Both the position numbers and the translations under genes were made by a program. A stretch of 64,000 bases of DNA from assembly GCF_044647545.1 (NCBI RefSeq), contig NZ_CP172818.1. The stretch is one strand, 5' to 3'. Under the pieces are notes generated by a model. That model made no database searches. It was not told the origin of the DNA and was given only the letters and a program-made list of their open reading frames with translations. This DNA is from Escherichia coli. Its GTDB lineage: Bacteria; Pseudomonadota; Gammaproteobacteria; Enterobacterales; Enterobacteriaceae. Of the stretch, positions 3,188 through 19,326 are shown in pieces; positions within the stretch are counted from its first letter, which is position 1; every line of letters begins with the position of its first letter.

Positions 3188-3766
3188 ATGTCAGCCATCG
3201 ACTGTATAATTACCGCTGCCGGATTATCATCAAGAATGGGGCAATGGAAAATGATGTTACCCTGGCAACAGGGAACAATTCTTGATGCAAGTATCAAAAA
3301 TGCGTTGCAGTTTTGTAGCCGAATTATTTTAGTCACCGGCTATCGTGGTAATGAACTGCACGAACGTTATGCGAACCAGAGTAATATCACTATTATCCAC
3401 AACCCAGATTATGCGCAGGGTTTACTGACATCAGTAAAGGCCGCAGTACCCGCGGTGCAAACAGAACATTGTTTTCTCACCCACGGTGACATGCCAACCC
3501 TCACCATCGATATTTTTAGAAAAATCTGGCCGTTACGTAATGATGGCGCAATACTGCCACTCCATAATGGCATCCCCGGCCATCCGATTTTAGTGTCAAA
3601 ACCATGCCTGATGCAGGCAATCCAGCGACCCAATGTCACCAATATGCGTCAGGCACTCCTTATGGGAGAACATTATTCCGTCGAAATAGAAAATGCAGAA
3701 ATAATTTTAGATATTGATACTCCTGACGACTTTATTACAGCGAAGAAAAGGTATACTGAAATTTAG
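3188..3766 (+). CDS. mocA: molybdenum cofactor cytidylyltransferase
   Basis: 192-aa ORF matching MocA (YgfJ) in length and MobA-like N-terminal motif. Confidence 0.9.
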   Translation: MSAIDCIITAAGLSSRMGQWKMMLPWQQGTILDASIKNALQFCSRIILVTGYRGNELHERYANQSNITIIHNPDYAQGLLTSVKAAVPAVQTEHCFLTHGDMPTLTIDIFRKIWPLRNDGAILPLHNGIPGHPILVSKPCLMQAIQRPNVTNMRQALLMGEHYSVEIENAEIILDIDTPDDFITAKKRYTEI

Positions 3767-3990
3767 AAAACGTAGTTAAACGATTGCGTTCAAATATTTA
3801 ACCCCTCCTGTACTCTTTATCATAATGATAAGGAATCACTGATTTTGAGAAAAGAGAAAAAGTGATAAATGGGCTGGCAATAATAATTTTCAGGAGTGAT
3901 TTTAATTCTCATTTGGCACCTGTGAGTTCATTCACAAAAAGCCATTAAGTTTCGAGCCGCCTCACATTTTTTTATATTTCCCGCCAAACC

Positions 3991-4006
3991 TGGCAAGAGT
4001 GGTGCG
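3991..4006 (+). promoter_or_regulatory. candidate sigma-54 (-24/-12) promoter element upstream of ygfK
   Basis: TGGCA at 3991-3995 with TGC at 4003-4005, giving GG and GC at consensus spacing; about 80 bp upstream of the ygfK start; -12 region is imperfect. Confidence 0.25.
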
Positions 4007-4087
4007 ATTGTTGCTCTATCCCCCTAAACCACCGGATTTCTCAACACCGGTCACTCAATGATATCTGTATAAGCTAAGGAGAGGGTT

Positions 4088-7000
4088 ATGGGGGATATTA
4101 TGCGTCCCATTCCGTTTGAGGAACTTTTGACGCGCATATTTGATGAATACCAACAACAACGCTCAATCTTTGGTATTCCCGAGCAACAGTTTTACTCACC
4201 CGTAAAAGGTAAAACTGTTAGCGTCTTCGGTGAAACCTGTGCCACTCCCGTCGGCCCTGCCGCTGGTCCGCACACGCAGCTCGCGCAAAATATTGTCACT
4301 TCCTGGCTGACTGGCGGACGCTTCATCGAACTAAAAACCGTCCAAATTCTTGACCGCCTGGAGCTGGAAAAGCCCTGTATCGATGCCGAAGACGAGTGCT
4401 TTAACACCGAATGGTCTACCGAATTTACCCTGCTTAAAGCCTGGGATGAATACCTCAAAGCCTGGTTTGCCCTGCACCTTCTCGAAGCGATGTTCCAGCC
4501 TTCTGATTCCGGTAAATCGTTCATCTTTAATATGAGCGTCGGTTACAACCTCGAAGGTATTAAGCAACCGCCGATGCAACAGTTCATCGACAATATGATG
4601 GACGCATCTGACCATCCGAAATTCGCTCAATATCGCGATGCACTTAATAAGCTACTCCAGGATGAGGCATTTTTAGCCCGCCACGGATTGCAGGAAAAAC
4701 GCGAAAGCTTGCAAGCCTTACCCGCTCGCATCCCCACCAGCATGGTACAAGGTGTTACCCTCTCCACCATGCACGGCTGTCCTCCGCATGAAATCGAAGC
4801 CATTTGTCGCTACATGCTGGAAGAAAAAGGACTCAACACCTTTGTGAAACTTAACCCGACCTTACTGGGGTATGCGCGTGTTCGTGAGATCCTCGATGTC
4901 TGCGGTTTCGGTTACATAGGCTTAAAAGAAGAGTCATTTGATCACGACCTCAAGCTGACGCAAGCGCTGGAAATGCTGGAACGCCTGATGGTACTGGCAA
5001 AAGAAAAATCACTCGGCTTTGGCGTAAAACTGACTAACACTCTCGGCACCATCAACAATAAAGGCGCACTGCCTGGTGAAGAGATGTATATGTCAGGCCG
5101 TGCGCTGTTCCCGCTCTCCATCAATGTTGCAGCAGTTCTCTCTCGCGCCTTTGACGGCAAACTGCCCATTTCTTATTCCGGTGGTGCCAGTCAGCTGACT
5201 ATCCGCGATATTTTTGATACTGGTATTCGCCCTATTACTATGGCAACCGACCTGCTGAAACCTGGCGGCTATCTGCGCTTAAGTGCCTGCATGCGCGAGC
5301 TGGAAGGCTCCGACGCCTGGGGGCTTGACCATGTTGACGTCGAACGACTGAACAAACTGGCAGCAGACGCGTTAACCATGGAATACACTCAGAAACACTG
5401 GAAGCCAGAAGAGCGTATTGAAGTGGCAGAAGACCTGCCGCTGACCGACTGCTACGTTGCACCGTGCGTTACTGCTTGCGCCATTAAACAGGATATTCCG
5501 GAATACATCCGTCTGCTTGGCGAACACCGCTATGCCGACGCACTGGAACTCATCTACCAACGCAACGCCCTGCCCGCCATTACCGGTCATATTTGCGATC
5601 ACCAGTGCCAATACAACTGTACCCGCCTGGATTACGACAGTGCGCTGAATATCCGCGAACTGAAAAAAGTCGCGCTGGAAAAAGGTTGGAATGAATATAA
5701 GCAACGCTGGCACAAACCAGCCGGTTCTGGTTCACGCCATCCGGTTGCCGTGATTGGTGCAGGTCCGGCGGGTCTGGCAGCAGGTTACTTCCTTGCCAGA
5801 GCGGGCCATCCGGTTACGCTGTTTGAACGCGAAGCCAATGCGGGCGGCGTGGTGAAAAATATCATTCCTCAGTTCCGTATTCCTGCAGAGTTAATTCAGC
5901 ACGATATCGATTTTGTTGCCGCTCACGGCGTGAAATTTGAGTATGGCTGCTCACCCGATCTGACCGTTGAACAGTTAAAAAATCAGGGCTTCCACTATGT
6001 TCTGATTGCCACCGGCACTGATAAAAATAGCGGTGTGAAACTGGCGGGCGACAACCAAAATGTCTGGAAATCACTCCCCTTCCTGCGTGAATACAACAAG
6101 GGCACAGCGCTCAAGCTGGGCAAACATGTGGTCGTTGTCGGGGCGGGTAACACCGCAATGGACTGCGCTCGTGCGGCGTTACGCGTTCCAGGCGTAGAAA
6201 AAGCAACGGTCGTTTACCGTCGTTCACTGCAAGAGATGCCAGCATGGCGCGAAGAGTATGAAGAAGCGTTGCACGACGGCGTGGAGTTCCGTTTTCTGAA
6301 TAATCCGGAACGTTTCGATGCTGATGGCACCTTAACCTTGCGCGTTATGTCGCTTGGCGAACCTGATGAGAAAGGTCGTCGCCGTCCGGTTGAAACCAAC
6401 GAAACAGTAACGCTGCATGTAGACAGCCTGATCACCGCCATTGGTGAACAGCAGGATACTGAAGCCCTGAATGCAATGGGCGTGCCGCTGGACAAAAACG
6501 GCTGGCCAGACGTCGACCATAATGGCGAAACGCGTCTGACTGACGTCTTTATGATCGGCGACGTACAGCGCGGACCATCCTCCATTGTCGCTGCTGTCGG
6601 AACCGCGCGTCGGGCGACCGATGCAATCCTGAGTAGGGAAAATATCCGTTCCCACCAGAACGATAAATACTGGAACAACGTCAATCCGGCGGAAATCTAT
6701 CAACGTAAAGGCGATATCTCTATCACTCTGGTGAACAGTGACGATCGTGACGCGTTTGTCGCCCAGGAAGCCGCACGCTGCCTTGAATGTAACTACGTTT
6801 GCAGCAAGTGTGTGGATGTCTGCCCGAACCGCGCCAACGTCTCCATTGCGGTTCCTGGCTTCCAGAACCGTTTCCAGACGCTGCATCTCGATGCCTACTG
6901 CAACGAATGCGGCAACTGCGCCCAATTCTGCCCGTGGAACGGTAAACCGTACAAAGACAAAATCACCGTCTTCAGCCTGTCGCAAGACTTTGATAACAGC

Positions 7001-7186
7001 AGCAACCCAGGCTTCCTTGTGGAAGATTGCCGGGTACGAGTACGTCTGAATAACCAAAGCTGGGTGTTAAACATCGACAGCGAAGGTCAGTTCAACAACG
7101 TACCACCGGAGCTGAACGATATGTGCCGCATTATTAGCCATGTCCACCAGCATCATCATTATCTGCTGGACCGCGTGGAGGTGTAA
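4088..7186 (+). CDS. ygfK: putative Fe-S / FAD-NAD(P)-binding oxidoreductase subunit (GltD-like), YgfK
   Basis: 1032-aa ORF, same length as E. coli YgfK; GAGPAG dinucleotide-binding motif and cysteine clusters; preceded by RBS AAGGAGAGGG. Confidence 0.9.
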   Translation: MGDIMRPIPFEELLTRIFDEYQQQRSIFGIPEQQFYSPVKGKTVSVFGETCATPVGPAAGPHTQLAQNIVTSWLTGGRFIELKTVQILDRLELEKPCIDAEDECFNTEWSTEFTLLKAWDEYLKAWFALHLLEAMFQPSDSGKSFIFNMSVGYNLEGIKQPPMQQFIDNMMDASDHPKFAQYRDALNKLLQDEAFLARHGLQEKRESLQALPARIPTSMVQGVTLSTMHGCPPHEIEAICRYMLEEKGLNTFVKLNPTLLGYARVREILDVCGFGYIGLKEESFDHDLKLTQALEMLERLMVLAKEKSLGFGVKLTNTLGTINNKGALPGEEMYMSGRALFPLSINVAAVLSRAFDGKLPISYSGGASQLTIRDIFDTGIRPITMATDLLKPGGYLRLSACMRELEGSDAWGLDHVDVERLNKLAADALTMEYTQKHWKPEERIEVAEDLPLTDCYVAPCVTACAIKQDIPEYIRLLGEHRYADALELIYQRNALPAITGHICDHQCQYNCTRLDYDSALNIRELKKVALEKGWNEYKQRWHKPAGSGSRHPVAVIGAGPAGLAAGYFLARAGHPVTLFEREANAGGVVKNIIPQFRIPAELIQHDIDFVAAHGVKFEYGCSPDLTVEQLKNQGFHYVLIATGTDKNSGVKLAGDNQNVWKSLPFLREYNKGTALKLGKHVVVVGAGNTAMDCARAALRVPGVEKATVVYRRSLQEMPAWREEYEEALHDGVEFRFLNNPERFDADGTLTLRVMSLGEPDEKGRRRPVETNETVTLHVDSLITAIGEQQDTEALNAMGVPLDKNGWPDVDHNGETRLTDVFMIGDVQRGPSSIVAAVGTARRATDAILSRENIRSHQNDKYWNNVNPAEIYQRKGDISITLVNSDDRDAFVAQEAARCLECNYVCSKCVDVCPNRANVSIAVPGFQNRFQTLHLDAYCNECGNCAQFCPWNGKPYKDKITVFSLSQDFDNSSNPGFLVEDCRVRVRLNNQSWVLNIDSEGQFNNVPPELNDMCRIISHVHQHHHYLLDRVEV

Positions 7187-7188
7187 TC

Positions 7189-8517
7189 ATGTTGATTCTG
7201 AAGAATGTCACCGCAGTGCAGTTACACCCGGCGAAAGTGCAGGAAGGCGTTGATATCGCCATCGAAAATGATGTGATTGTCGCTATCGGCGATGCCCTGA
7301 CGCAACGCTACCCCGATGCCAGCTACAAAGAGATGCATGGTCGGATTGTGATGCCGGGAATTGTCTGCTCGCATAACCATTTTTACTCGGGACTTTCCCG
7401 CGGAATTATGGCAAATATCGCCCCCTGCCCGGATTTCATCTCAACGCTGAAAAATCTCTGGTGGCGGCTCGATCGCGCCCTTGATGAAGAGTCGCTCTAT
7501 TACAGCGGACTGATTTGTTCCCTGGAAGCGATTAAGAGCGGATGTACATCGGTTATCGATCACCATGCCTCTCCAGCCTATATCGGCGGGTCACTCTCCA
7601 CATTGCGCGACGCATTTTTAAAAGTTGGCCTGCGCGCGATGACCTGTTTTGAAACTACTGACCGTAACAGCGGCATCAAAGAGTTGCAGGAAGGTGTAGA
7701 AGAAAACATCCGCTTCGCCCGTCAGATTGATGAGGCGAAGAAAGCAGCAACCGAGCCGTATCTGGTGGAAGCACATATCGGCGCTCACGCGCCGTTTACC
7801 GTGCCGGATGCCGGTCTGGAGATGCTGCGTGAAGCCGTGAAAACCACAGGTCGTGGTTTGCATATTCACGCTGCGGAAGACCTTTACGACGTTTCCTACA
7901 GTCACCACTGGTACGGCAAAGACCTACTGGCACGACTGACGCAATTCGATCTCATCGACAGCAAAACGCTGGTCGCTCATGGGCTGTACTTGTCGAAAGA
8001 TGACATCACCCTACTCAATCAGCGCGATGCGTTCCTGGTGCATAACGCCCGTTCAAACATGAACAACCATGTCGGCTACAACCATCACCTTAGCGACATC
8101 CGCAATCTGGCGTTGGGAACGGACGGCATTGGTTCGGACATGTTTGAAGAGATGAAATTTGCCTTCTTTAAACATCGCGATGCGGGTGGCCCGCTGTGGC
8201 CTGACAGTTTTGCCAAAGCACTGGCTAACGGCAACGAACTGATGAGCCGCAACTTTGGCGCGAAATTTGGGCTTCTGGAAGCCGGTTACAAAGCCGATTT
8301 AACCATTTGCGATTACAACTCGCCGACGCCGCTGCTGGCAGACAATATCGCCGGGCATATCGCTTTCGGTATGGGCTCAGGCAGCGTTCACAGCGTGATG
8401 GTCAATGGTGTGATGGTCTATGAAGACCGTCAGTTTAACTTCGATTGCGATTCCATTTATGCGCAAGCCAGAAAAGCCGCTGCCAGTATGTGGCGTCGGA
8501 TGGATGCGCTGGCATAA
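7189..8517 (+). CDS. ssnA: putative aminohydrolase / chlorohydrolase SsnA
   Basis: 442-aa ORF, amidohydrolase-like HxH metal motif (CSHNHFY); starts 3 bp after ygfK stop. Confidence 0.9.
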   Translation: MLILKNVTAVQLHPAKVQEGVDIAIENDVIVAIGDALTQRYPDASYKEMHGRIVMPGIVCSHNHFYSGLSRGIMANIAPCPDFISTLKNLWWRLDRALDEESLYYSGLICSLEAIKSGCTSVIDHHASPAYIGGSLSTLRDAFLKVGLRAMTCFETTDRNSGIKELQEGVEENIRFARQIDEAKKAATEPYLVEAHIGAHAPFTVPDAGLEMLREAVKTTGRGLHIHAAEDLYDVSYSHHWYGKDLLARLTQFDLIDSKTLVAHGLYLSKDDITLLNQRDAFLVHNARSNMNNHVGYNHHLSDIRNLALGTDGIGSDMFEEMKFAFFKHRDAGGPLWPDSFAKALANGNELMSRNFGAKFGLLEAGYKADLTICDYNSPTPLLADNIAGHIAFGMGSGSVHSVMVNGVMVYEDRQFNFDCDSIYAQARKAAASMWRRMDALA

Positions 8518-8521
8518 ATAA

Positions 8522-8552
8522 CAGCTCCCCTCTTCTTTCAGAGAAGAGGGGA
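8522..8552 (+). other. intra-operon stem-loop between ssnA and ygfM
   Basis: Inverted repeat CCCCTCTTCT...AGAAGAGGGG directly after the ssnA stop and before the ygfM RBS. Confidence 0.4.
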
Positions 8553-8567
8553 AATTAAGGAAAGACG

Positions 8568-9347
8568 ATGATTGAACAATTTTTCAGACCCGACTCTGTC
8601 GAACAAGCGCTGGAACTGAAGCGCCGCTACCAGGATGAAGCCGTCTGGTTCGCCGGGGGCAGTAAACTCAACGCCACACCAACCCGTACCGATAAAAAGA
8701 TTGCCATATCCTTACAGGATCTGGAACTGGACTGGGTTGACTGGGATAACGGTGCATTGCGGATTGGCGCGATGTCTCGCTTGCAAACACTGCGTGATGC
8801 ACGGTTTATTCCTGCAGCACTGCGTGAGGCTCTCGGCTTTGTCTACTCTCGCCATATTCGTAATCAGTCGACCATTGGTGGTGAAATCGCCGCCCGGCAG
8901 GAAGAGTCGGTGCTGCTTCCCGTCCTGCTGGCACTGGATGCTGAACTGGTTTTTGGCAACGGCGAAACGCTGTCAATCGAGGACTACCTGACCTGCCCAT
9001 GCGATCGCCTGCTAACCGAAATTATCATTAAAGATCCGTATCGCACCTGTGCGACCCGCAAAATTAGCCGTTCTCAGGCTGGGTTAACGGTAGTAACGGC
9101 AGCCGTTGCGTTAACCGATCACGACGGTATGCGAATTGCGTTGGATGGCGTGGCCAGTAAAGCACTGCGTCTGCACGATGTCGAAAAACAAAACCTGGAA
9201 GGCGATGCCCTTGAACAGGCTGTCGCCAACGCCATTTTCCCGCAGGAAGATTTGCGGGGCAGCGTGGCCTATAAACGCTATATCACGGGAGTTCTGGTAG
9301 CCGACCTGTATGCCGACTGCCAACAGGCTGGGGAGGAAGCCGTATGA
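8568..9347 (+). CDS. ygfM: FAD-binding subunit of xanthine-dehydrogenase-like molybdoenzyme
   Basis: 259-aa ORF matching YgfM length; overlaps xdhD start by 4 bp. Confidence 0.9.
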   Translation: MIEQFFRPDSVEQALELKRRYQDEAVWFAGGSKLNATPTRTDKKIAISLQDLELDWVDWDNGALRIGAMSRLQTLRDARFIPAALREALGFVYSRHIRNQSTIGGEIAARQEESVLLPVLLALDAELVFGNGETLSIEDYLTCPCDRLLTEIIIKDPYRTCATRKISRSQAGLTVVTAAVALTDHDGMRIALDGVASKALRLHDVEKQNLEGDALEQAVANAIFPQEDLRGSVAYKRYITGVLVADLYADCQQAGEEAV

Positions 9348-12214
9348 TCATCCACTTTACTTTAAATGGCGCGCCTCAGGAGCTGACCGTTAATCCTGGT
9401 GAAAACGTGCAAAAGCTGTTGTTTAACATGGGAATGCACTCTGTACGCAACAGTGATGATGGCTTCGGGTTTGCCGGTTCTGACGCAATAATCTTTAACG
9501 GTAATATCGTTAACGCGTCCTTGCTTATCGCCGCACAGTTAGAGAAGGCAGATATTCGTACCGCAGAGTCTCTGGGCAAATGGAACGAGTTAAGTCTGGT
9601 TCAACAGGCAATGGTTGATGTTGGCGTGGTGCAGTCTGGTTATAACGATCCAGCTGCGGCTCTGATTATCACCGATCTTCTCGATCGCATTGCCGCACCT
9701 ACCCGCGAAGAGATCGACGACGCGCTTTCTGGTTTGTTCAGCCGCGATGCAGGCTGGCAACAATACTATCAGGTCATTGAACTGGCGGTTGCACGTAAAA
9801 ATAATCCGCAGGCCACCATTGATATCGCTCCGACTTTCCGCGATGACCTTGAAGTCATTGGTAAGCATTATCCTAAAACTGATGCCGCGAAAATGGTGCA
9901 GGCGAAACCCTGCTATGTTGAAGACCGCGTAACGGCTGACGCCTGCGTCATTAAAATGTTACGTAGCCCACACGCTCACGCACTGATTACTCATCTGGAT
10001 GTCAGCAAAGCTGAAGCCTTACCGGGCGTCGTTCACGTTATTACTCACCTGAATTGCCCGGATATTTACTATACCCCGGGTGGTCAGAGCGCACCGGAAC
10101 CGTCACCGCTTGACCGCCGAATGTTCGGCAAGAAAATGCGTCACGTCGGCGATCGCGTTGCTGCGGTAGTAGCCGAAAGTGAAGACATTGCGCTCGAAGC
10201 ACTGAAGCTCATCGACGTTGAATATGAAGTGCTTAAGCCAGTAATGTCGATTGACGAGGCAATGGCGGAAGATGCGCCTGTGGTGCACGATGAACCGGTG
10301 GTGTATGTTGCTGGTGCGCCAGATACTCTGGAAGATGATAACAGCCATGCAGCCCAGCGCGGCGAGCATATGATCATCAACTTCCCGATCGGTTCTCGCC
10401 CACGCAAAAATATCGCTGCCAGTATTCATGGTCATATTGGCGATATGGACAAAGGCTTTGCCGATGCCGATGTGATCATTGAGCGAACCTATAACTCAAC
10501 GCAGGCGCAGCAGTGCCCGACTGAAACACATATCTGCTTTACCCGTATGGACGGCGATCGTCTGGTTATCCACGCCTCCACCCAGGTACCATGGCACTTA
10601 CGCCGCCAGGTCGCGCGCCTCGTGGGCATGAAACAACATAAAGTTCATGTCATTAAAGAGCGAGTTGGCGGCGGTTTTGGTTCCAAACAGGACATCCTGC
10701 TGGAAGAAGTGTGCGCCTGGGCAACCTGCGTGACCGGGCGTCCGGTACTGTTCCGCTACACCCGTGAAGAAGAGTTTATTGCTAACACCTCTCGTCACGT
10801 CGCGAAAGTCACCGTCAAACTGGGCGCGAAAAAAGATGGTCGCCTGACGGCAGTGAAGATGGATTTCCGCGCCAACACTGGCCCTTACGGCAACCACTCA
10901 CTCACCGTACCGTGTAACGGACCGGCGCTGTCGCTGCCGTTATATCCGTGCGATAACGTCGATTTCCAGGTCACCACCTACTACAGCAACATTTGCCCAA
11001 ATGGTGCTTATCAGGGTTATGGCGCACCGAAAGGTAACTTCGCTATCACCATGGCATTAGCGGAACTGGCTGAACAGTTACAGATCGACCAACTGGAAAT
11101 TATCGAACGTAACCGGGTACACGAAGGGCAAGAGCTGAAAATTCTCGGTGCAATCGGTGAAGGTAAAGCGCCGACCTCCGTTCCTTCCGCCGCCAGCTGC
11201 GCACTGGAAGAGATCCTGCGTCAGGGTCGCGAGATGATCCAATGGTCTTCACCAAAACCACAAAACGGTGACTGGCACATCGGTCGTGGCGTCGCCATTA
11301 TCATGCAGAAATCAGGGATCCCAGATATCGATCAGGCTAACTGCATGATCAAACTGGAATCAGACGGTACCTTTATCGTTCATTCTGGCGGTGCGGATAT
11401 TGGTACTGGTTTGGATACTGTGGTGACGAAACTGGCAGCAGAAGTGCTGCACTGCCCACCGCAGGACGTGCATGTTATCTCTGGTGATACCGATCATGCA
11501 CTGTTTGATAAAGGCGCATATGCCTCGTCCGGTACTTGCTTCTCGGGTAACGCGGCGCGTTTGGCAGCGGAAAATCTGCGGGAGAAAATTCTTTTCCACG
11601 GTGCGCAAATGTTGGGTGAGCCAGTGGCAGATGTTCAACTAGCAACGCCGGGCGTCGTTCGCGGCAAGAAAGGCGAAGTTAGTTTCGGGGATATTGCCCA
11701 TAAAGGCGAAACCGGCACCGGCTTTGGTTCACTGGTGGGAACTGGCAGTTATATCACGCCTGATTTCGCCTTCCCGTATGGCGCGAACTTCGCTGAAGTT
11801 GCCGTCAACACGCGTACGGGTGAAATCCGCCTGGATAAATTCTACGCCTTGCTGGATTGCGGTACACCGGTCAATCCAGAGTTAGCGTTGGGACAAATCT
11901 ACGGTGCCACCCTTCGTGCAATCGGCCACAGTATGAGCGAAGAAATCATTTATGACGCCGAAGGTCACCCGTTAACGCGTGATTTACGCAGTTACGGCGC
12001 ACCGAAAATTGGTGACATTCCGCGTGATTTCCGCGCTGTGCTGGTGCCGAGCAACGATAAAGTCGGCCCATTCGGGGCGAAATCGATCTCGGAAATCGGT
12101 GTAAATGGCGCAGCTCCGGCGATTGCTACCGCAATTCACGATGCCTGCGGCATCTGGTTACGCGAATGGCATTTCACACCGGAGAAAATACTCACCGCGC
12201 TGGAAAAAATATAA
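9344..12214 (+). CDS. xdhD: molybdopterin-binding hypoxanthine oxidase-like subunit XdhD
   Basis: 956-aa ORF matching XdhD length; N-terminal 2Fe-2S-like region followed by aldehyde oxidase/xanthine dehydrogenase-type domain. Confidence 0.9.
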   Translation: MIIHFTLNGAPQELTVNPGENVQKLLFNMGMHSVRNSDDGFGFAGSDAIIFNGNIVNASLLIAAQLEKADIRTAESLGKWNELSLVQQAMVDVGVVQSGYNDPAAALIITDLLDRIAAPTREEIDDALSGLFSRDAGWQQYYQVIELAVARKNNPQATIDIAPTFRDDLEVIGKHYPKTDAAKMVQAKPCYVEDRVTADACVIKMLRSPHAHALITHLDVSKAEALPGVVHVITHLNCPDIYYTPGGQSAPEPSPLDRRMFGKKMRHVGDRVAAVVAESEDIALEALKLIDVEYEVLKPVMSIDEAMAEDAPVVHDEPVVYVAGAPDTLEDDNSHAAQRGEHMIINFPIGSRPRKNIAASIHGHIGDMDKGFADADVIIERTYNSTQAQQCPTETHICFTRMDGDRLVIHASTQVPWHLRRQVARLVGMKQHKVHVIKERVGGGFGSKQDILLEEVCAWATCVTGRPVLFRYTREEEFIANTSRHVAKVTVKLGAKKDGRLTAVKMDFRANTGPYGNHSLTVPCNGPALSLPLYPCDNVDFQVTTYYSNICPNGAYQGYGAPKGNFAITMALAELAEQLQIDQLEIIERNRVHEGQELKILGAIGEGKAPTSVPSAASCALEEILRQGREMIQWSSPKPQNGDWHIGRGVAIIMQKSGIPDIDQANCMIKLESDGTFIVHSGGADIGTGLDTVVTKLAAEVLHCPPQDVHVISGDTDHALFDKGAYASSGTCFSGNAARLAAENLREKILFHGAQMLGEPVADVQLATPGVVRGKKGEVSFGDIAHKGETGTGFGSLVGTGSYITPDFAFPYGANFAEVAVNTRTGEIRLDKFYALLDCGTPVNPELALGQIYGATLRAIGHSMSEEIIYDAEGHPLTRDLRSYGAPKIGDIPRDFRAVLVPSNDKVGPFGAKSISEIGVNGAAPAIATAIHDACGIWLREWHFTPEKILTALEKI

Positions 12215-18959: not shown

Positions 18960-19310
18960 TTGCATCCCTTTCATTTAATGAGTTATGTCTTCTCAAATTT
19001 CGCGATGCAATAAATGGGCATATATTAGGTAGCATGACCGATTTAATTATAATTTTGCGACTGAGTTCAAATTATTGCCCCTCAATCTGTGCCGCTTTCA
19101 TTATTTCAACATTGCCGAACAAAAGAGAGCTAACCAGATAAAAACGATTAAATACGAGAGTGCGACATGCCAGAATGATTAATGAAATATCAATATGAGA
19201 AAATTACAGATAATTCCATTGTCAGGTTCTCTTCTCATTTTCGTGTTTTAACCACGATTATGTGATTGCCTCCGCAATTCCTGTCTCTAACTCCCCTTCC
19301 TCGCAAAAAC

Positions 19311-19326
19311 TGGCACTCCACGAGCA
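19311..19326 (+). promoter_or_regulatory. candidate sigma-54 (-24/-12) promoter upstream of uacT
   Basis: TGGCAC at 19311-19316 and GCA at 19324-19326 with consensus GG-N10-GC spacing, about 70 bp upstream of the uacT ATG. Confidence 0.3.

Follow-up and report, generated by a model that had tools for sequence, protein, structure and literature searches.

The ygfK-ssnA-ygfM-xdhD operon of Escherichia coli is very probably served by a sigma-54 promoter whose core lies at positions 3999-4015 of the window, by which I mean the whole 64,000-nucleotide stretch of DNA that was analysed. I put the probability of this register at about 85%. The dependence of ygfK on sigma-54 is not new, having been published in 2010 and again in 2015. 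What is added here is the finding of which of two published registers is conserved, together with a map of a candidate activator site and of CRP sites. The candidate operator for YgeV and its arrangement with the CRP sites, both read from sequence, are the only parts that may be new.

The ygfK locus

The genes of the region run in the order yqeB and yqeC (minus strand), mocA, ygfK, ssnA, ygfM, xdhD, and the last four are separated, in order, by 2 nt, by 50 nt and by an overlap of 4 nt. All the ygfK promoter elements described below lie within the 321 bp between mocA and ygfK.

3188-3766: mocA
4088-7186, plus strand: ygfK, with its ATG at 4088
4088-12214, plus strand: the transcribed genes ygfK-ssnA-ygfM-xdhD (RefSeq annotation)

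The enzymes of the operon carry out the first steps of reductive urate degradation in gut bacteria: XdhD-YgfM reduce urate, and YgfK and SsnA open the ring (PMC12507026 and a preprint). Because this pathway is now being engineered for use against gout, the way it is controlled has practical interest.

Positions 3700-4200 are 100% identical to the corresponding sequence of E. coli strain FDAARGOS_497, and a search of the same interval against Rfam (E <= 1) gave no matches. The 81 bp around the core (3960-4040) are 100% identical in a K-12 MG1655 record, and 4470 of 5168 E. coli genomes carry them with an identity of at least 99%, a level of polymorphism too low to tell the two registers apart.

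Directly past the stop codon of mocA, at 3775-3794, stands a box, GTTAAACGATTGCGTTCAAA, which Citrobacter, Klebsiella indica, Edwardsiella, Buttiauxella and Serratia keep in the form TTWAWCGATTGCGYTCA. The box agrees with the PurR operator consensus at 12 of 16 positions, and is offered as a lead only.

A sigma-54 core before ygfK

Three features bear on the position of the promoter.

3999-4015, plus strand: sigma-54 core promoter GTGGTGCGATTGTTGCT, from the ChIP-seq motif OS31, matrix score and conservation
3991-4006, plus strand: the element of an earlier note on this DNA, TGGCAAGAGTGGTGCG, with the same register as the ygfK prediction of Zhao et al. 2010
4026-4028, plus strand: predicted transcription start, 12-14 nt beyond the C in the -12 GC, for a 5' UTR of some 62 nt

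Binding of sigma-54 upstream of ygfK was observed by ChIP-seq as peak OS31 (FAT 26; PMC4591121), which by my count ranks ninth in strength among the 42 intergenic-sense sites in Table 1 of that paper. The motif given for OS31 is identical to GTGGTGCGATTGTTGCT. Its centre is at 3014001 and that of the peak at 3014019 in K-12 coordinates, the distance to ygfK is given as 62 nt, in agreement with the window, and the site is flagged as a predicted promoter in EcoCyc (PMC4591121). What that paper shows is occupancy, not transcription. As to transcription, Zhao, Liu and Burgess 2010 counted ygfK among 22 new sigma-54 genes, its mRNA falling 2.4-fold in an rpoN deletion and rising 2.1-fold five minutes after induction of sigma-54 (PMC2831329). 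The peak and the rpoN-dependent mRNA together bear out the general claim of the earlier note, that a sigma-54 promoter precedes ygfK.

The sequence fits. With its -24 GG at 4001-4002 and its -12 GC at 4013-4014, 3999-4015 has the form TGGTGC-N5-TTGCT and only two mismatches to TGGCACG-N4-TTGCW. A weight matrix was made from the sigma-54 sites that Bonocora et al. 2015 list from ChIP-seq, 134 in number once that of ygfK is omitted. By this leave-one-out measure the core scores 14.15 bits, against a median of 14.4 in the training set, and it comes top of all 128,000 positions in the 64-kb window.

The start of transcription was predicted by the rule of Bonocora et al. (motif centre + 19). It is placed at 4026 because the published distance of 62 nt to ygfK equals 4088 - 4026. 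An A is moderately conserved at 4027 and 4028 (69% and 60%). No mapped transcription start for ygfK was found in the literature.

Occupancy might mean less than it seems. On one account the sigma-54 site is bound but unproductive, transcription of ygfK being the work of sigma-70 polymerase with CRP, or else the result of read-through from mocA. Bonocora et al. themselves warn against equating binding with a promoter (PMC4591121), in vitro genomic SELEX with RpoN lists the ygeV/ygeW spacer and not ygfK, a perfect CRP site is present upstream, and no terminator was found after mocA. Even so, I consider this account very unlikely. It has to contend with the dependence of ygfK mRNA on rpoN (PMC2831329) and with a motif that, as described below, keeps a promoter-like distance both to the ATG and to a conserved enhancer in very divergent bacteria. 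A scan of 3700-4150 for sigma-70 promoters gave 2 matches, against 1.3 expected, and no -35/-10 pair was found between the CRP sites and ygfK.

Two observations concern the region of the predicted start. An inverted repeat, ACCGG-N11-CCGGT, occupies 4031-4051, about +6 to +26 of the predicted transcript, and is kept as RYCGG...CCGRY in 26 sequences from Enterobacterales. Taken as a hairpin of 5 bp, which was named by hand, it is 94% paired and almost invariant, with a compensatory change at one pair, while RNAalifold applied to the 26 5' UTRs predicted no consensus structure. The repeat could be either an RNA hairpin or a DNA site. In E. coli ET245 (locus L086) a deletion of 5 bp, AAACC, equivalent to 4027-4031, falls in the region of the predicted ygfK start.

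Two published registers

The earlier note had put the sigma-54 element nine nucleotides further upstream, and exactly the same string is the promoter predicted for ygfK in Table 2 of Zhao et al.: TGGCAAGAGTGGTGCGAT (printed aaccTGGCAAGAGTGGTGCGATtgtt) at -97 to -80, which is 3991-4008 of the window (PMC2831329). Their register is backed by rpoN-dependent array data, but it came from motif software, it is not conserved, and it differs from 3999-4015, the motif of OS31, which it overlaps. Bonocora et al. found no enriched sigma-54 motif in the Zhao gene set (PMC4591121). Both published registers for ygfK were in fact chosen by motif software, that of OS31 by MEME, and the independent support for choosing between them is the comparative analysis described here, not the MEME-picked motif.

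The string itself is where the note said it was. It lies 82-97 nt before the ATG (the note had estimated about 80 bp), with GG at 3992-3993 and GC at 4004-4005, the consensus sigma-54 spacing of TGGCA-N7-TGC. Only the formula given for it, TGGCAA-N7-TGC, is off by one, the actual sequence being TGGCAA-N6-TGC, which is equivalent to TGGCA-N7-TGC. How much is such a match worth? The window holds 9 copies of the pattern TGGCA-N7-TGC, where shuffled sequence would lead one to expect 4.1, and the eight besides this one are all outside the mocA-ygfK spacer. A control pattern with the spacing wrong by one base (N8) also occurs 9 times.

Weight-matrix scoring, which the note had suggested as a check, gives little comfort to its element. 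The 17-mer at 3990-4006 reaches 7.9 bits with the full matrix, below 132 of the 134 real sites, and 74 positions in the window score at least as high. An alternative matrix, made from the 41 intergenic-sense sites only, treats it more kindly: 10.3-10.4 bits, 15th in the window and above 2 of the 41 real sites. The string is real, but alone it is no better than chance. Nor does the ChIP-seq peak favor it, the centre of the peak lying 18 bp downstream of the 3999-4015 register and 27 bp from the upstream one, though a difference of 9 bp is below the resolution of the method.

Conservation of the core

The comparison rests on 80 loci that contain an orthologue of ygfK. They come from Escherichia, Citrobacter, Klebsiella, Serratia, Edwardsiella, Morganella, Erwinia, Aeromonas, Vibrio, Photobacterium, Shewanella, some Betaproteobacteria and spirochaetes. 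The best matrix match within 400 bp before ygfK is, for 74 of these loci, a motif of 12-20 bits orthologous to 3999-4015, with the form YTGG(C/T)NYG-ATTG-TTGCT, 47-144 nt before the ATG; its range extends from Escherichia to Vibrio, Aeromonas, Shewanella and some of the Betaproteobacteria. Of the six loci without it, four are spirochaetes, one is an Ideonella and one has too little flank. Among the 72 unique sequences T-GG (4000-4002) and TTGC (4011-4014) are invariant in all 72, an apparent invariance of GG and GC that is inflated by the use of the matrix to pick the sites. The picks are not random, though, since the motif lies at a fixed distance from landmarks that owe nothing to the matrix, CTCAC at -38 and TGTGA-N6-TCACA at -78, and random picks would not do so.

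The upstream string fares otherwise. Its GG columns (3992-3993) carry about 0.1 bit of information across the 72 orthologous sequences, and the string is present only in Escherichia among the 80 loci and absent outside the genus. Even within Escherichia it varies, reading TGGTAA in E. whittamii and having AAT for AAG in the spacer of E69, while the downstream 17-mer (3999-4015) is invariant in the same sequences. What had been read as its -12 TGC belongs in fact to TGGTGC, the -24 element of the 3999-4015 register. Thus 3991-4006 is probably not the functional register, and the claim that it is the sigma-54 element gives way to the conserved, high-scoring core nine nucleotides downstream.

It follows that I regard as extremely unlikely the possibility that the register of Zhao et al. 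is the functional promoter, with a start near 4017, despite its consensus spacing, its appearance in print, its better score with the intergenic-only matrix and the limited resolution of ChIP-seq. The score with the full matrix, the lack of conservation both within Escherichia and beyond it, and the greater distance to the peak centre all go the other way. A compromise would have both overlapping registers bind sigma-54 holoenzyme, giving two starts nine nucleotides apart or mutual interference. GG and GC are correctly spaced in both, and the upstream register is kept in the three Escherichia lineages sampled. Since nothing requires the second site, which scores in the range of chance and has no conservation beyond the genus, this too seems very unlikely.

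The spacer between the -24 and -12 elements of the preferred core at 3999-4015 has a character of its own: ATTG (4007-4010) carries 0.8-1.3 bits per position across the 72 sequences, above what is usual in sigma-54 sites.

A parallel exists at a greater distance. Orthologues of ygfK-ssnA belong to a reconstructed sigma-54 regulon of Clostridiales, that of DioR (PMC6615313), in which orthologues of ygeW-ygfK-ssnA-ygeY are under sigma-54 and a dedicated activator, as at ygfK. That regulon is found in Firmicutes, has another activator and another enhancer motif, and is a computational reconstruction only.

An upstream palindrome and its possible activator

Upstream of the core stand three conserved elements, with distances counted from the first base of the 17-mer (window 3999).

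3818-3830, no strand assigned: UAS1, TATCATAATGATA, a perfect palindrome that may be bound by an enhancer-binding protein (YgeV)
3838-3852, no strand assigned: UAS2, degenerate second copy ACTGATTTTGAGAAA, about 20 bp past UAS1
3897-3914, no strand assigned: conserved box TGATTTTAATTCTCATTT, possibly further half-sites of the TGAKA type

UAS1, TATCA-N3-TGATA, is at -181 from the 17-mer, its centre being at about -202 from the predicted start. A perfect copy is found in 60 of the 74 loci, and its distance from the sigma-54 motif falls into discrete classes: -160/-161 (14 loci), -180 to -183 (28 loci) and -193 to -195 (13 loci). The first two classes are two helical turns apart; the -193 class is shifted by about 12 bp, which does not make up a whole number of turns. 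The 551 kb of the loci hold 74 perfect copies of the palindrome, and 60 of the 74 are at this upstream position. The flanks of UAS1 are not conserved. The sequence TTTTGA(G/T)AA is kept 19-21 bp after it, and in Vibrio and Photobacterium UAS2 is a nearly full second palindrome, TATTAAATTGATA. The sigma-54 core has, then, a conserved tandem palindrome upstream of it, which I read as the activator site. Of the third element, ATTCTCAT keeps one position, -94/-95 relative to the motif, in most Enterobacterales, and TTCTCATTT also occurs upstream of uacT, at 19232-19240.

Which protein might bind here? YgeV has a PAS domain, a sigma-54-interaction AAA+ domain and an HTH_8 domain, and its gene is in the same cluster, 10 kb upstream and outside the window. 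A search of the 80 loci with E. coli YgeV (tblastn) gave no match, hence no homologue within 3 kb of ygfK. The chance that the palindrome serves as the YgeV operator at ygfK seems to me a little better than even.

CRP-like sites

Between the palindromes and the core are two sequences resembling CRP sites.

3921-3936, no strand assigned: CRP-like site 1, TGTGAGTTCATTCACA, both pentamers perfect, centre at about -97.5
3951-3966, no strand assigned: CRP-like site 2, TTCGAGCCGCCTCACA, a weaker match, centre at about -67.5

The first is a perfect TGTGA-N6-TCACA, and it recurs with at most one mismatch at -78/-79 in 28 of the 74 loci, all of them Enterobacterales, compared with a background rate of about 1e-4 per position. 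The second reaches further, with at most three mismatches at -48/-49 in 56 of the 74 loci, Aeromonas included; in Erwinia it reads TGCGA-N6-TCACG, and CTCAC is fixed at -38. Binding of CRP in vitro is documented by genomic SELEX, whose targets include ygfK, the ygeV-ygeW spacer and the ygfT-ygfU (ygfT-uacT) spacer (PMC3105977). A Crp site has also been reported in the ygeV-ygeW spacer, and in wild-type E. coli the degradation of urate is repressed by glucose. That CRP plays an activating or architectural part at ygfK is a tentative proposal, which I would rate at rather less than an even chance; CRP could instead act negatively or on another promoter.

There is a precedent in the prpBCDE promoter of E. 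coli and Salmonella, which is used by sigma-54 with PrpR and is CRP-dependent. Like that of ygfK, it serves catabolic genes, uses sigma-54 and has an enhancer-binding protein of its own together with control by cAMP-CRP. It differs in its regulator, in its enhancer sequence and in its pathway, and the mechanism of CRP at ygfK is only proposed. The usual architectural role between an enhancer and a sigma-54 core is that of IHF; inspection by eye of the DNA between enhancer and core at ygfK turned up no convincing match to the IHF consensus.

A sigma-70 candidate picked by hand in this region, TTTCGA-17-TATATT, was rejected, its -35 element failing with 3/6 matches.

A model for activation

I propose that sigma-54 holoenzyme sits on 3999-4015 as a closed complex, as the published ChIP-seq occupancy suggests. 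An enhancer-binding ATPase, most likely YgeV, would assemble on the tandem palindrome some 180-200 bp upstream and reach the polymerase through looping of the DNA. CRP, at one or both of the intervening sites, would bend the DNA, help the loop to form or gate activation in a cAMP-dependent manner. Only upon action of the ATPase would transcription start near 4026 and read through ygfK-ssnA-ygfM-xdhD. Activation dependent on CRP, if that is what occurs, would explain the reported repression of urate degradation by glucose.

The model may be extended to the view that TATCA-N3-TGATA is the operator of YgeV, an orphan activator, throughout the Gammaproteobacteria, with tandem CRP sites replacing IHF at ygfK. 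This is possible, if short of probable. If true, the urate operon would need the YgeV signal and cAMP together in order to fire. Neither a published YgeV site nor such an arrangement of enhancer, CRP sites and core was found in the literature searched. Those who engineer this promoter or study YgeV could take the candidate activator and CRP sites as a guide.

Other promoters of the cluster

The earlier note went on to suppose that the ygfK operon and uacT answer to the same regulator. This is reasonable, given the iModulon and the upstream element that they share, and is already in the literature: the YgeV iModulon contains ygfK, ssnA, ygfM, xdhD, ygfT, uacT, xdhABC, ygeWXY and hyuA (PMC10602906, PMC12133099). 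Expression of ygfT is lower in a ygeV mutant, according to a secondary statement whose primary source is Iwadate and Kato 2019.

The sequences tell a similar story. The element TATCAATATGAGA stands before ygeW and again between ygfT and uacT, at 19188-19200, and xdhA has related copies upstream of it. When up to two mismatches are allowed, copies of the palindrome are enriched upstream of the sigma-54 motifs of xdhA, ygeW, ygfK and uacT, 7 of 46 matches falling in the 1.6% of 77 kb made up by the 300 bp upstream regions (binomial p = 7e-6, a value that takes no account of A+T-rich spacers). Like ygfK, xdhA (OS29), ygeW (OS30) and ygfT (OS32) have -24/-12 cores with ChIP-seq peaks, and they share with it upstream elements like TATCA-N3-TGAKA and membership of the same iModulon. 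They differ in the distance from palindrome to core, which is about -131 at xdhA and -213 at ygeW compared with -181 at ygfK, and the only perfect palindrome among the cluster promoters is the copy at ygfK.

Two sigma-54 sites have been placed in the spacer between ygfT and uacT.

19310-19326, plus strand: sigma-54 candidate for uacT, CTGGCACTCCACGAGCA, 5.5 bits
19006-19022, minus strand: the ygfT site OS32, TATGCCCATTTATTGCA, one base different from K-12 TATGCCCGTTTATTGCA

The note had called the ygfK site the weaker of its two candidates, which has matters backwards: the uacT candidate scores 5.5 bits, compared with 14.2 for the ygfK core. The candidate is not among the ChIP-seq sites read from Tables 1 and 2 of Bonocora et al., and the ChIP-seq peak in the spacer is assigned to ygfT, on the opposite strand (PMC4591121). 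In this strain uacT (19395-20833) is a frameshifted pseudogene, the frame from the ATG at 19395 stopping at 20489 after 364 codons and the remainder lying in another frame; the matching RefSeq record annotates it so.

Sigma-54-like sequences within genes

Two further sequences in the window resemble sigma-54 sites and lie within genes. One, CTGGCACGACTGACGCA at 7927-7943 on the plus strand, is inside ssnA. It scores 13 bits as a sigma-54 motif, is absent from the published ChIP-seq sites and is probably a chance match. The other is the intragenic site IS34, TGAGCACGAACCTTGCA at 2667-2683 on the minus strand, inside yqeC and facing yqeB. Whether through promoter conservation or through coding constraint, it recurs as GCAYGARCCTTGCA in the DNA upstream of ygfK, with its strand unchanged, in Aeromonas, Edwardsiella, Serratia, Buttiauxella, Vibrio and Photobacterium.
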